In this document: piece after piece, positions 2,039 to 63,583 of the stretch
How the letters are laid out: each line of letters opens with the position of its first letter
How positions within the stretch are numbered: position 1 is the stretch's first letter
Assembly: GCA_016297965.1 (NCBI GenBank)
Contig: JAEDDP010000004.1
Span: forward strand, 15,661 to 79,660
Reading direction: 5' to 3'
DNA: 64,000 bases
DNA from: Alphaproteobacteria bacterium
GTDB taxonomy: Bacteria > Pseudomonadota > Alphaproteobacteria > Rs-D84 > CACZYB01
Position numbers and translations under genes: made by a program
Notes under the pieces: model-generated
The model's database searches: none
The model's input: only the letters and a program-made list of their open reading frames with translations
Told to the model about the DNA's origin: nothing

Positions 2039-2067
2039 TATATAATAATCACTATTCCGTTTTTCAA
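2039..2067 (-). promoter_or_regulatory. sigma70-like promoter for groES-groEL
   Basis: On the minus strand: TTGAAA (2067..2062), a 17-nt spacer, then TATATA (2044..2039). Confidence 0.45.
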
Positions 2068-2100: not shown

Positions 2101-2104
2101 AAAT

Positions 2105-2206
2105 AAAAAATCACTTTAAAGGTCATCACCCTTCCAAAGTGTCATTAAGTTATCTATCATCAATGTATATAAATATAATATCACGATTCGTGAAATAATG
2201 CAAGGG
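2105..2206 (-). repeat. Copy 1 of a ~102-nt intergenic element (candidate sRNA unit)
   Basis: On the minus strand: TTGCAT (2203..2198), a 17-nt spacer containing TCACGA-A-TCGTGA, then TATTAT (2180..2175). The hairpin CACTTT..AAAGTG spans 2141..2112 and is followed by T6. It differs at 3 positions from the copy at 49224. Confidence 0.85.
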
Positions 2207-29544: not shown

Positions 29545-29623
29545 TTATACTTCCAACAATTAAACAATAATGGTTCATTTTACCGTCAATTATGAAAAAT
29601 TTCAATAAAAACCATACAGAAAT

Positions 29624-29726
29624 AAAAAATCACTTTAAAGGTCATCACCCTTTCAAAGTGTTATTAAGTTATCTACCATCAATGTATATAAATATAATAT
29701 CACGATTCGTGAAATAATGCAAGGGG
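29624..29726 (-). repeat. Copy 2 of the ~102-nt intergenic element (candidate sRNA unit)
   Basis: Same layout as copy 1 on the minus strand. It differs at 4 positions from the copy at 49224. Confidence 0.85.
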
Positions 29727-30302: not shown

Positions 30303-30460
30303 CTTTTATCCTTAATTATTATATTTTTAATTCAATTTCCGATTCTTTTCTTAAATCACGATAATTATATTAACAAAAAAAACATATTTGTCAATATAAT
30401 TTTATAAAAAATCCTTTGATTCTTGCCACCAACCTGTGCTATAATAGAAAAATCATTTAC

Positions 30461-30550
30461 GGAAAGGTGGCAGAGTGGTTGAATGCGGCGGCCTCGAAAA
30501 CCGTTATGGGGGCAACTCCATCGGGGGTTCAAATCCCTTCCTTTCCGCCA
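30461..30550 (+). tRNA. tRNA-Ser (anticodon CGA), long variable arm, CCA encoded
   Basis: Acceptor GGAAAGG/CCTTTCC, anticodon loop CTCGAAA, long variable arm GGGGGCAACTCCATC, and T-arm GGGGG-TTCAAAT-CCCTT (stem closed by a G-T wobble). Confidence 0.9.
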
Positions 30551-47935: not shown

Positions 47936-49222
47936 ATGGACGAAGTAAAAGTAATAACATTCGGATGTAGACTTAATATTTTTGAATCAGAAATCATTCG
48001 TAAACGAGTTCAAAAGGCAGGCATAAAAAATGCCATTGTCGTACACACCTGTGCCGTTACAAGTGAGGCTGAACGTCAGGCAAAACAACAAATTCATAAA
48101 ATAATAAAGGAAAATCCAGACGCAAAAATAATCCTTACCGGATGTTCCGCACAAAATTCATGGCAAAATTATAAGGACAACCAAAACATTTTTGCAATCC
48201 TTGGGAATAAGGAAAAACTTTCACAACAATATTATAATGAATTGGCAATACTTACCCAAAAGGATGCACCCCACATATATGTTGGCGAAATCCTTACCAA
48301 TCCACCAGAAATGATTGAGGTACAACCAAAGGACGACCTTTTCAAATTTGATGGAAAAACAAAGGCATTCGTTCAAATACAACAAGGTTGCAATAACCGT
48401 TGCACCTATTGTGTTGTGCCATTTGTCCGCGGTAAAAACCAAAGTTTTTCCGAAAAAAGCATACTTAACCAATGCAAAACATTTATAAAGGAAGGATACA
48501 AGGAAATAATCCTTACGGGTGTTGATATTGCCGCATACGGTTCGGATACAAAAAACAAATCACTGTTTGGATTGGTAAAAAAAATTCTTGATACCTTTCC
48601 AAAACTTCAACGACTTCGCCTATCATCAATTGATCCGGCAAAAAGTTATGACCAAATATTGGGATTGATGAAACTTGACAGACGACTTATGCCACATTTT
48701 CACCTTTCAATTCAGGCCGGCGATGACAAGGTTTTAAACGATATGCGCCGTCGTCATAATCGTGAAGATATAATAAGCTTATGCAAAAAAATTCACCGTG
48801 CGAATAAAAATTCCGCCATCGGAGCGGACATAATTGTTGGTTTTCCAGGTGAAACCGAAAAGGAGTTTGAAAATACGTATAAGCTTGTCAAAAAATGCAA
48901 CATCACCCACCTTCACGTATTTCCATATTCAATTCGTCCGGGTACAGTTGCCGCAAAAATGCAAAACCAAATTAACGGCAATGTAAAAAAGGAACGGGCA
49001 AAAAAGCTTCGTGAACTTGGAGATAAATTAAAATACAAATTTATCAAAAGCCAAAAGGGAAAGAAAACAACTGTCCTTGTTGAAAACAAAAATCAAGGTT
49101 ATACAGAAAATTATATCTTTGTAAATATAGAGGGTGACCCAATCCCAAACAATACCATTGTAAATGTAAAAATTACAAAGGTTGAAAAGGACGGTACCGC
49201 CTACGCAAGGGTTATAAAATAA
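47936..49222 (+). CDS. mtaB: Radical-SAM methylthiotransferase, MtaB/MiaB-like tRNA-modifying enzyme
   Basis: N-terminal UPF0004 domain (TFGCRLNIFESE), radical SAM CNNRCTYCVVP, and a C-terminal TRAM-like segment. Confidence 0.8.
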   Translation: MDEVKVITFGCRLNIFESEIIRKRVQKAGIKNAIVVHTCAVTSEAERQAKQQIHKIIKENPDAKIILTGCSAQNSWQNYKDNQNIFAILGNKEKLSQQYYNELAILTQKDAPHIYVGEILTNPPEMIEVQPKDDLFKFDGKTKAFVQIQQGCNNRCTYCVVPFVRGKNQSFSEKSILNQCKTFIKEGYKEIILTGVDIAAYGSDTKNKSLFGLVKKILDTFPKLQRLRLSSIDPAKSYDQILGLMKLDRRLMPHFHLSIQAGDDKVLNDMRRRHNREDIISLCKKIHRANKNSAIGADIIVGFPGETEKEFENTYKLVKKCNITHLHVFPYSIRPGTVAAKMQNQINGNVKKERAKKLRELGDKLKYKFIKSQKGKKTTVLVENKNQGYTENYIFVNIEGDPIPNNTIVNVKITKVEKDGTAYARVIK

Positions 49223-49223
49223 A

Positions 49224-49325
49224 CCCTTGCATTATTTCACGAATCGTGATATTATACTTATATACATTGATGATAGATAACTTAATAACACTTTGGAAGG
49301 GTGATAACCTTTAAAGTGATTTTTT
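49224..49325 (+). repeat. Copy 3 of the ~102-nt intergenic element (candidate sRNA unit)
   Basis: TTGCAT 49227..49232, a 17-nt spacer with TCACGA-A-TCGTGA, TATTAT 49250..49255, hairpin 49289..49318, and T6 at 49320..49325. It starts 1 nt after the mtaB stop. Confidence 0.85.
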
Positions 49326-50283
49326 ATTTTTCATCCTGCATTTCTTTAATCATTCTTTTTATTGGTTCAACATACTTTTCCATTGAATCATCTTCAACTA
49401 CATTACAGGCCTTACTACAATCATCAAAATATTTAACTGTGTTTGCTTTACTATATTCTCCATAAAAAGCATCTCCCCTACTCTTTTTCTTCAAAAACTC
49501 ATCCAAAGATTTTGTATGATAATGATTTATCCTAATTTTATGAACGTCATTAAAAAGCAATACAGTCCCCAAAATACAATTTTCATCAACAGCATAAAAA
49601 TTCTTTATATAATAAAAGGTATGGACACAATTTGCACTATAAACTAGACGAGGATTTACAATACTTTTAACCAAAGATTTTGTTTCTTTCGCAATTTTTC
49701 CATGAAATTTAAACCTTTCAATAACAAGGTCGTTTATGGTTGTATTTTCCGTTTCCCTTGAACCATAAAGCCACCAAGGAACAAGTAGTCCTGCCACCGG
49801 TGCCTTTAAATCAAGTTCTTCCAAAACACCCCTTATTGTTTTACCCTTCATTGGAACAATAAATTCATCATCATCAATAAAGGCAACATATTTTGATGTC
49901 AACCTTAACCGTTTCAATGCATCATTATAAACTATGTCCTGTTGTTTCTTTCCCGGCCAATAAAAATATTCAACAATTCCCGATTTTATGTATGGTTTAA
50001 GGACTTCTTTCAAATTATCATTTGATTCGTTATCATAAATATAAAACTTTTCAACCCCAACAATTCTGTGATAATTTATCCACTCCTCTATGTACCGAGA
50101 GGCATTTTTAACAATCAAAACAACACTCAAATAATACGGGAAATTTAATTTTTCATCTTTTTTATAGTTTCTAAGGACTTTAAAGTAATACAAAAACATC
50201 CCGTTTCTAAAAGCCCTTCTTAAATTTCTTGATGGAATAAAACAATAAATAATCTTCCTTAACACCTTTTCAAATTTTGTCAT
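49324..50283 (-). CDS. Glycosyltransferase (GT92/GT2-like fold)
   Basis: YLSVVLIVKNASRYIEEWINYHRIVGVEKFYIYDNES and AFIDDDEF (DxD-like). Start moved to the ATG at 50283, which has GGGAG 7 nt upstream. The track start at 50319 lies in the loop of a terminator hairpin. Confidence 0.7.
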   Translation of the reverse strand: MTKFEKVLRKIIYCFIPSRNLRRAFRNGMFLYYFKVLRNYKKDEKLNFPYYLSVVLIVKNASRYIEEWINYHRIVGVEKFYIYDNESNDNLKEVLKPYIKSGIVEYFYWPGKKQQDIVYNDALKRLRLTSKYVAFIDDDEFIVPMKGKTIRGVLEELDLKAPVAGLLVPWWLYGSRETENTTINDLVIERFKFHGKIAKETKSLVKSIVNPRLVYSANCVHTFYYIKNFYAVDENCILGTVLLFNDVHKIRINHYHTKSLDEFLKKKSRGDAFYGEYSKANTVKYFDDCSKACNVVEDDSMEKYVEPIKRMIKEMQDEK

Positions 50284-50295
50284 AAAACACTCCCT

Positions 50296-50521
50296 TTGTA
50301 AAAAAATTGCCACTGTCATAAGTGGCGGGGAGTTAGTAAATCATCAATAATGAAAATGATCTCTTTGATCTTTAAGGGTATACCCTCTGAACATACATCA
50401 AAGACTCCCCACACTATGTGGGGATTTGGTCAACGACCAACATTATTGAAAAGACTTACTACGGTCCCGCATCCACCTATGGATGCTAAATATGGAAAAC
50501 CATATCTGGTTTCAAATATTA
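50296..50521 (-). promoter_or_regulatory. Structured, GC-enriched leader RNA ending in an intrinsic terminator upstream of the glycosyltransferase (candidate riboswitch/attenuator or sRNA)
   Basis: On the minus strand: promoter TTGAAT (50543..50538)-16 nt-TAATAT (50521..50516). Hairpins at 50490..50505, 50469..50486, 50429..50439, 50407..50423 and 50375..50386. Long-range stems 50362..50369/50397..50404 and 50327..50333/50404..50410. Terminator GCCACT-tatgac-AGTGGC (50326..50309) plus T7. Confidence 0.5.
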
Positions 50522-63227: not shown

Positions 63228-63256
63228 TTTACAAAAAAAGATTCTTGAATTATAAT
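63228..63256 (+). promoter_or_regulatory. sigma70-like promoter for tRNA-Ser(UGA)
   Basis: TTTACA (63228..63233), a 17-nt spacer, then TATAAT (63251..63256). Confidence 0.6.
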
Positions 63257-63271
63257 CCTAACATCTTTTGC

Positions 63272-63361
63272 GGATGGGTGGCAGAGCGGTCGAATGCGGC
63301 GGTCTTGAAAACCGTTGTGGGGGCAACTCCACCGGGGGTTCGAATCCCTCCCCATCCGCCA
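63272..63361 (+). tRNA. tRNA-Ser (anticodon UGA), long variable arm, CCA encoded
   Basis: Acceptor GGATGGG/CCCATCC, anticodon arm GCGGT-CTTGAAA-ACCGT, a long variable arm, and T-arm GGGGG-TTCGAAT-CCCTC (stem closed by a G-T wobble). Confidence 0.9.
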
Positions 63362-63476: not shown

Positions 63477-63578
63477 CCCCTTGCATTATTTCGCGAATCG
63501 TGATATTATACTTATATACATTGATGATAGATAACTTATAACACTTTGAAAGGGTGATGACCTTTAAAGTGATTTTTT
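63477..63578 (+). repeat. Copy 4 of the ~102-nt intergenic element (candidate sRNA unit)
   Basis: Same layout as copy 3. The operator variant is TCGCGA-A-TCGTGA. Relative to copy 3 there are three substitutions (one of them the operator change) plus a 1-nt deletion in the 5' region. Confidence 0.85.
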
Positions 63579-63583
63579 ATACC

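Follow-up and report, generated by a model that had tools for sequence, protein, structure and literature searches.

A four-copy promoter-to-terminator cassette in an uncultured human-gut alphaproteobacterium as a probable new family of sibling small RNA genes

Trans-acting small RNAs (sRNAs) are encoded as sets of siblings in several bacteria, as exemplified by Qrr1-5 of Vibrio, LhrC1-5 of Listeria, csRNA1-5 of Streptococcus, AbcR1/2 of the Rhizobiales, and CcsR1-4 of Rhodobacter. In Bartonella, multicopy transcripts of ~200 nt, termed Brt1-9, lie upstream of helix-turn-helix (HTH) genes, each being paired with a downstream trp regulator gene. The sequence GANTC constitutes the methylation site of CcrM in Alphaproteobacteria. 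GcrA prefers the motif YGAKTCK, with the consensus TGATTCG, and the promoters that it activates carry their sites "narrowly centered around -20" (Haakonsen et al. 2015, PMC4647560). The present analysis concerns a stretch of 64,000 nucleotides—hereafter the window—from an alphaproteobacterial genome assembly (GCA_016297965.1, contig JAEDDP010000004.1, positions 15,661 to 79,660), in which a 104-bp cassette is found in four copies. These copies probably represent a new family of sibling sRNA genes, each specifying a non-coding RNA of ~64 nt, in an uncultured bacterium of the human gut. Confidence in this reading is moderate because transcription has been deduced from conservation alone. Objects of this type are already known from the sibling sRNAs, and this particular family appears to be new, judging by the lack of a match in Rfam.

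An earlier note on this DNA had described four near-identical units, and exactly four were found, with pairwise identities of 95.1–97.1% over 102 nt and a single 1-nt deletion in the fourth copy. The first copy (c1, 2103..2206 for the full unit, minus strand) is located 93 nt upstream of the groES start codon. The second (c2, 29622..29726, minus strand) lies between orf161, which has its own terminator, and a CoA-transferase operon whose ATG follows 75 nt downstream. The third (c3, 49224..49327, plus strand) is wedged between the convergent genes for MtaB and a GT92 glycosyltransferase, and the fourth (c4, 63477..63580, plus strand) is found downstream of tRNA-Ser(TGA), with a sulfatase-like gene convergent to it. 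Since two copies sit between convergent genes, the co-orientation of every copy with its upstream gene, to which the earlier note had drawn attention, is informative for just the other two and lacks statistical meaning. The edges of the unit are sharp: similarity begins with the CCC just before TTGCAT and stops at TTTTTTAT. When the window was searched separately for the hairpin, promoter part, middle part, and 13-nt palindrome with two to three mismatches allowed, these four sites were the only ones returned in each case, against an expectation of 0–1.3 from shuffled sequences. A repeat scan of the window revealed no partial copies and no further copy was found in the 8 kb past its left end, the density of units being 4 per 72 kb. 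The G+C content of the window is 33–38%, and the closest relatives of its MtaB and GroES proteins are found in human-gut metagenome assemblies and metagenome-assembled genomes (MAGs) labelled Alphaproteobacteria, named Rickettsiales proteins being just ~45% identical. The exact GroES protein is present in 167 blocks of the assembly collection, and the host is therefore a common gut species.

All four copies share one anatomy, which had been recognized correctly: TTGCAT, a 17-nt spacer, TATTAT, a hairpin, and T6. In c3, the -35-like hexamer TTGCAT (49227..49232, plus strand; TTGCAA in relatives) is preceded by CC-N-C, the spacer core CGAATCG, which contains a GANTC site and forms the center of the 13-nt palindrome, occupies 49240..49246 (plus strand), and an extended -10 element composed of TGA and TATTAT (TAATAT in loci L011/L014) spans 49247..49255 (plus strand). 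Constraint within the species was assessed from a profile of 14 distinct same-species sequences. None of the 53 columns that make up the -35 hexamer, the CGAATCGT core, the GA and the -10, the 22 stem positions, and the tail varies in this profile, whereas 21 of the 52 columns elsewhere do (Fisher p=3e-8). The differences among c1–c4 are likewise placed after the -10, in the middle part, in the bulge, or in the loop, and stem pairs are never hit, in line with the earlier description. Four other species (L007, L011/L014, L042, and L034) carry a unit of the same architecture that is 70–78% identical and retains CTTGCA, CGAATCGT, TAWTAT, both stem halves, and the U-tail. CTTGCA is invariant across the five species, and the arrangement CTTGCA-17-TGnTAWTAT is kept in all of them and is invariant within the species of the window. 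Such a pattern of invariant parts is what a promoter followed by an intrinsic terminator would predict, the covariation discussed below being thin when taken alone. The designation of TTGCAT and TATTAT as a good sigma-70 pair, however, needs correction, since TTGCAT matches TTGACA at 3/6 positions only (3–4/6 across the five species) and a consensus scanner made no promoter call. Promoter strength would rather come from the extended -10 (TGnTATTAT), the -35 being weak.

From a sigma-70-type promoter of this kind (CTTGCAT, 17 nt, TGnTATTAT), transcription would start ~7 nt after TATTAT. The predicted transcript of c3 covers ~64 nt (49262..49325, plus strand; start set from the -10 position only) and would run from a conserved 5′ block (AUACAUUGAUGAU) through an A/U-rich middle that evolves fast to an 11-bp intrinsic-terminator hairpin and U6. 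The earlier proposal of an autonomous mini-gene with a transcript of ~65 nt thus stands as far as its promoter and terminator parts are concerned, both of which are invariant within the species and kept in four others, the transcript itself being a prediction. In the hairpin (49289..49318, plus strand), an 11-bp stem (CACUUUG-g-AAGG / CCUU-U-AAAGUG) is interrupted by one bulge and closed by a 7-nt loop. The hairpin reads CACTTTG(G/A)AAGG-GTGAT(G/A)A-CCTTTAAAGTG followed by A-T6 in all four copies, and the stem with its A-U6 tail recurs in every copy and every relative. The A-T6-AT tail (49319..49327, plus strand), which marks the 3′ boundary of the unit, holds the stop codon of the convergent GT92 gene (49324-49326, minus strand). 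Across the five species, the 11 base pairs are formed in 100% of cells and nine of them are invariant. Of the other two, one differs between species by an A-U→U-G double change and the second by a G-C→G-U change; an invariant G·U pair is also present. The A-U→U-G change is common to three species and therefore probably goes back to a single event. On the opposite strand, the G·U and U·G pairs would turn into A·C mismatches, which assigns the structure to the strand of the proposed transcript. At gathering threshold, Rfam 15 recognized four tRNAs in the window and nothing on the unit, and in E-value mode the best score on the unit was ~20 bits as compared with gathering thresholds of 53–60 bits, which agrees with the earlier remark that the unit was not recognized as any known RNA family. 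A literature search on sRNAs upstream of groES and on alphaproteobacterial sibling sRNAs yielded nothing matching.

That the product might instead be a very small protein is suggested by an ATG-started open reading frame (ORF) of 14 codons (ATGATAGAT…CTTTAA) within the transcript of c1–c3. This is extremely improbable: the frame lacks a Shine-Dalgarno sequence, the 1-nt deletion cuts it to 5 codons in c4, strain variants contain indels, and only unrelated short frames are found in relatives. The small-ORF reading was rejected on account of these frame-breaking indels, and direct inspection of copies and relatives revealed no conserved ORF in the unit, confirming what had been noted before.

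A different question is which factor would act on the spacer. The earlier note envisaged a repressor, here taken to be dimeric, that binds TCACGA-A-TCGTGA and blocks RNA polymerase at all copies. The 13-nt palindrome (49237-49249) is indeed perfect in c1–c3, where it lies between -35 and -10, and c4 reads TCGCGA-A-TCGTGA. In addition, the same 21-mer is found in the promoter of a winged HTH (wHTH) regulator gene on an unrelated marine single amplified genome (SAG) contig (L001), and in L034 the unit begins 7 nt after the end of a merR-family gene. However, the dyad symmetry is not conserved. The left arm varies among units (TCACGA, TCGCGA, or AAGCGA), the outer two pairs, which break in relatives, are lost in 2–3 sequences, and in 4–6 sequences G·T replaces the third pair, while CGAATCGT, the CGAATCG(T) core corresponding to columns 15-22, is invariant in all units of all species. 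The right arm is partly accounted for by the TG of the extended -10, no other window promoter carries the motif even at 2 mismatches, the L001 regulator has no homologue in the window, and the spacer measures 17 bp rather than the 19–20 bp typical of MerR-type operators. A symmetric repressor site is therefore considered unlikely. The 21-mer itself (TTTCACGAATCGTGATATTAT) is located at L001:330-350 and L002:1148-1168 (CACMOJ010000024.1, a SAR116 single-cell assembly) and forms part of a TTGAAA-18-TATTAT promoter ahead of the gene for a 168-aa wHTH regulator. L001 and L002 are different parts of one marine SAG contig in which a ~700-bp stretch occurs as inverted duplicates, probably an amplification chimera. 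This contig was also the only one returned when the genome-contig collection was scanned with TTTCNCGAATCGTGATATTAT, a pattern too strict for relatives.

Because CGAATCG is kept and dyad symmetry is not, a GANTC/GcrA-type site is more likely than a symmetric repressor operator. The bottom strand of the core, CGATTCG, fits YGAKTCK, and the core would be centered at ~-19 if the start lies 7 nt after TATTAT. The spacer core therefore suggests a GANTC/YGAKTCK element pointing to CcrM/GcrA-type control, which is to be regarded as a lead and not as a finding. By informal comparison, no motif of the extracytoplasmic function (ECF), sigma-32, LexA, CtrA, Fur, or LacI type fits the unit. In the related species L034, a second small unit (U2, L034:1584-1675), located between motA/exbB and an HD-domain gene, carries a promoter module that is identical at 29/29 positions (TTGCAAAAAGTTGCGAATCGTGATATTAT) but precedes a distinct predicted transcript of ~55 nt with its own terminator (ACUUUAAA/UUUAAAGU; z=-2.9). 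The combination of an identical module with a different transcript implies that the promoter module behaves as a separable, reusable regulatory part. GANTC is also present in or next to the promoter-like regions of both tRNA-Ser genes of the window (at 30418 and 63240). These genes (30440-30550, CGA; 63251-63361, TGA) are 84% identical, including ~21 nt upstream of the mature tRNA.

The history of the unit is linked to groES. A unit is found directly upstream of groES in L007, L011/L012/L014, and L042 (NCBI MAG GCA_014803545.1), and is followed there by the same separate groES promoter. The upstream neighbors differ in five contexts from four species—orf61, priA, a NUDIX gene, another gene with its own terminator, and a divergent gene—and since they change while groES stays, the unit travels with groES. 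By this comparison, c1 is the ancestral, groES-linked copy, a distinction that the earlier note did not draw. The mtaB 3′ site that harbors c3 in the window contains no unit in L005, L007, and L011, mtaB running up to or into the following gene there; c3 is therefore a species-specific addition, and by their near-identity c2 and c4 probably are as well. Searches with a covariance model (R1), which covered 290 kb and a further 45 kb of loci, detected no additional diverged copies besides U1 and U2 of L034 and the L042 unit. The hairpin pattern gave one match in JGI metagenomes, a chance terminator (L016), and a scan of IMG/VR gave nothing.

The position upstream of groES raises the possibility that the unit is a cis-acting leader or attenuator, i.e., a conditional terminator with read-through into groESL or the CoA-transferase operon that also provides a second regulated promoter. 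A marginally stable, A/U-rich hairpin melting on heat shock would be an example. In support of this, the unit has stayed directly upstream of groES in four species despite the changing upstream neighbors, c1 and c2 are co-oriented with downstream operons at 93 and 75 nt from the start codons, and the hairpin is weak (about -10.6 kcal/mol). The CIRCE element (controlling inverted repeat of chaperone expression; TTAGCACTC-N9-GAGTGCTAA) has no match near groES or elsewhere in the window with up to 3 mismatches, and the unit is not CIRCE. In contrast, c3 and c4 face convergent genes and have no operon to lead, and a separate promoter lies between unit and operon at both c1 (TTGAAA-17-TATATA, 2039..2067, minus strand) and c2 (promoter-like TTGAAA-17-TAAAAT read directly from the sequence, 29577..29605, minus strand). 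The proximal groES promoter, (C/A)TTGAAA-17-TATATA in L007, L010, L011, L015, L034, and L042, is kept in all relatives, with or without a unit, L010 and L015 being the loci that have it without one. We take it to be loosely similar to alphaproteobacterial sigma-32 promoters. Furthermore, unit and groES promoter are separated by a ~870-bp insertion in L019 and L025, and in L034/L035, where the unit follows merR, a 755-aa ORF lies between unit and groES. A plain leader was rejected for the copies as a whole on these grounds, and the attenuator model in general is quite unlikely. The insertion (L019:9038-9905 and its equivalent in L025) is placed exactly between c1 and the groES promoter and contains a 179-aa ORF of unassigned function and its own terminator-like hairpin. 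On the other side of the operon, gene content downstream of groEL is strain-dependent, with motA/exbB in L017 and L024 and other genes in L019-L022. In L026, which encodes the identical GroES, this region is replaced by opposite-strand small ORFs (L026:2405-10410; HTH_36, Hydrolase_2, and others) that look like a prophage or island. A microvirus-like set directly downstream of groEL in L015 (L015:12368-16396), comprising a REP_ORF2-G2P replication protein and a Phage_F major capsid protein, is apparently an integrated Microviridae prophage.

Among the sampled strains of the same species, the copies are fixed. All nine other same-species contigs with identical GroES that span the site carry c1, c2 is present in L027, L028, L030, L031, and L032 (contigs with identical CoA-transferase), and c3 is present in L003, whose MtaB is 98% identical. 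For c4, contig L033 from another sample, which encodes the identical 175-aa protein, ends inside the unit and carries the c4-specific G variant. As none of the same-species contigs sampled lacks a copy or shows an empty site, there is no sign of ongoing transposition. The paralogues in the window are 95–97% alike, as compared with 93–94% between c1 and its orthologues in strains whose flanks are 96–98% identical. Likewise, the c2 unit of L027, despite flanks of 98.6% identity, departs from the window units at ~9 positions. In addition, a block of four changes (GATAGATAACTTAATAAC vs GATGAATAACTT-TTAAC) is common to c1 of L017/L018 and c2 of L027/L028/L030/L031. The closer relation of paralogues than of orthologues, together with the shared block variant, argues for gene conversion among the copies. 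In strain L003, the 331-aa GT92/GT2 glycosyltransferase gene that is convergent with mtaB in the window (49324-50319, minus strand) has been almost wholly deleted, ~36 nt of its 3′ end being kept beside c3 (L003:11395-11430).

These data also bear on a rival explanation by which the unit would be a DNA cassette repeated between genes—a selfish element, or an insulator made of terminator and promoter—and its RNA would have no function of its own. In such a case, the hairpin would end upstream or convergent genes, the promoter part would be incidental or drive neighbors, and copies would have spread by mobility or recombination. Consistent with this, three of the four copies are species-specific additions, the boundaries are sharp, and many metagenome contigs (L004, L009, L013, L026, L030, L032, and L033) break inside the unit, as expected of a repeat. 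Moreover, every copy follows a gene end, c3 and c4 being placed between convergent genes where a terminator is useful, the 5′ end of c3 pairs with the mtaB end in a 9-bp hairpin (z=-5.2 against shuffles), and the middle of the would-be RNA is its least constrained part. However, a mobile origin of the ordinary kind is not apparent: the copies have no terminal inverted repeats (TIRs), inverted repeats being confined to the hairpin, the palindrome inside the unit, and matches between A/T runs of the flanks, and no flanking direct repeats common to the copies that would qualify as target-site duplications (TSDs). The earlier note had already stated that both were missing, and an origin as a miniature inverted-repeat transposable element (MITE) was rejected for this reason. 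Nor was a transposase domain found among the scanned flanking ORFs, presence/absence polymorphism among the sampled strains, an extra copy in the 8 kb past the window, or a diverged copy in 290 kb of related loci. A pure terminator needs no -35, CGAATCG, and -10 conserved across five species, and orf161 already has a terminator of its own upstream of c2. The cassette explanation is therefore judged unlikely. The 9-bp hairpin at c3 is perfect (GCAAGGGTT / AACCCTTGC; 49205-49230), consists of the last mtaB codons and the first bases of c3, is followed by ATTATTT, and could be the mtaB terminator. Upstream hairpins built on the CCC of the unit were significant at c3 only, none comparable being found at c1, c2, or c4.

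Several observations nevertheless weigh against the sibling-sRNA reading. In the same-species sequences, the putatively unpaired middle is the most variable part of the unit and even contains indels, an unusual behavior for a seed region. The promoter has a weak -35 and escaped the consensus scanner, and the predicted transcript start follows from the -10 position alone. The folding energy of the hairpin is just modestly beyond that of shuffles (z about -1.3 to -2.1), and its covariation amounts to essentially one evolutionary event, most stem pairs being invariant and hence uninformative either way. No target was found for the unit RNA, and in a duplex test against the groES translation-initiation region its pairing was no better than that of shuffles in 4/5 species. 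With respect to the proposed control, ccrM and gcrA domains were absent from the scanned window ORFs and from the precomputed Pfam annotations of the loci, to which this search was confined. GANTC statistics as a proxy for CcrM indicate a mild and ambiguous depletion. The window contains 117 GANTC sites as compared with 173±13 in shuffles (observed/expected (O/E) 0.68), the depletion being restricted to coding sequence (O/E 0.54, vs 1.07 in intergenic sequence), and by Markov expectation the avoidance is mild (O/E 0.86), GTNAC and CCNGG being avoided far more strongly. The latter two sites are strongly avoided both in the window (O/E 0.26 and 0.42, respectively) and in most of L007, L011, L015, L034, and L042, which suggests restriction-modification pressure of those specificities in the clade.

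The history of the units can be summarized as follows. The ancestral copy resides immediately ahead of the groES-groEL promoter in a clade of gut Alphaproteobacteria with low G+C content. In the species of the window, the whole cassette was copied to three further intergenic sites, probably so in the case of c2 and c4, and sequence exchange would have kept the copies alike. CcrM methylation combined with GcrA-type activation would be the most likely control, tying expression to replication or the cell cycle, and the RNA would act in trans by base-pairing through its 5′ block. The complete scenario—a CcrM-methylated GANTC at ~-19 that is read by GcrA, and a groESL-coupled cassette that has spread without transposase hallmarks and been homogenized by gene conversion, yielding a methylation-timed sibling-sRNA regulon—is unlikely. 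If transcribed, the units would constitute the first riboregulator family for a widespread uncultured lineage of human-gut Alphaproteobacteria, one that is absent from Rfam and stands out by its fixed place next to groESL, a promoter element fitting the CcrM/GcrA epigenetic code, and its spread as a whole mini-gene kept uniform. They would then offer a compact case for the birth and co-regulation of sRNA families and a way into stress and cell-cycle control in organisms that are known from metagenomes only. If not transcribed, they would merely be a small species-specific intergenic repeat.

The units thus share features with several described systems and differ from each of them. Like MITEs and other small repeats (Correia elements of Neisseria, RUP/BOX of pneumococcus, Rickettsia palindromic elements, and REP/BIME), they are multicopy intergenic elements of ~100 bp that may provide a promoter or a terminator and at which assemblies break. 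Unlike these, they lack TIRs and TSDs, are fixed in the sampled strains, occur at low density, include one copy that is orthologous across species at one locus, and display the conservation pattern of a promoter and a terminator. With Brt1-9, they have in common that an alphaproteobacterial family of highly similar short units ends in terminator-like 3′ hairpins, whereas the predicted transcripts here measure ~64 nt and a co-oriented downstream gene is found at 2/4 copies only. Compared with the sibling sRNAs, they match no Rfam family in sequence or structure, the alphaproteobacterial ones included, are dispersed as complete promoter-to-terminator cassettes with sharp ends, and contain a would-be seed that is partly the most variable region. 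Nevertheless, as in the sibling sRNAs, several near-identical short units, non-coding by prediction, are present per genome, each with an intrinsic terminator, and one conserved promoter element is common to all of them, which would imply a common regulator. Finally, whereas GcrA targets are mostly protein-coding cell-cycle genes and a non-coding RNA is predicted here, the predicted promoter of the unit resembles the GcrA/CcrM-dependent promoters of Caulobacter and other Alphaproteobacteria in being of the sigma-70 type and in carrying GANTC in a YGAKTCK context, at ~-19 from the predicted start as compared with the reported ~-20 (PMC4647560).

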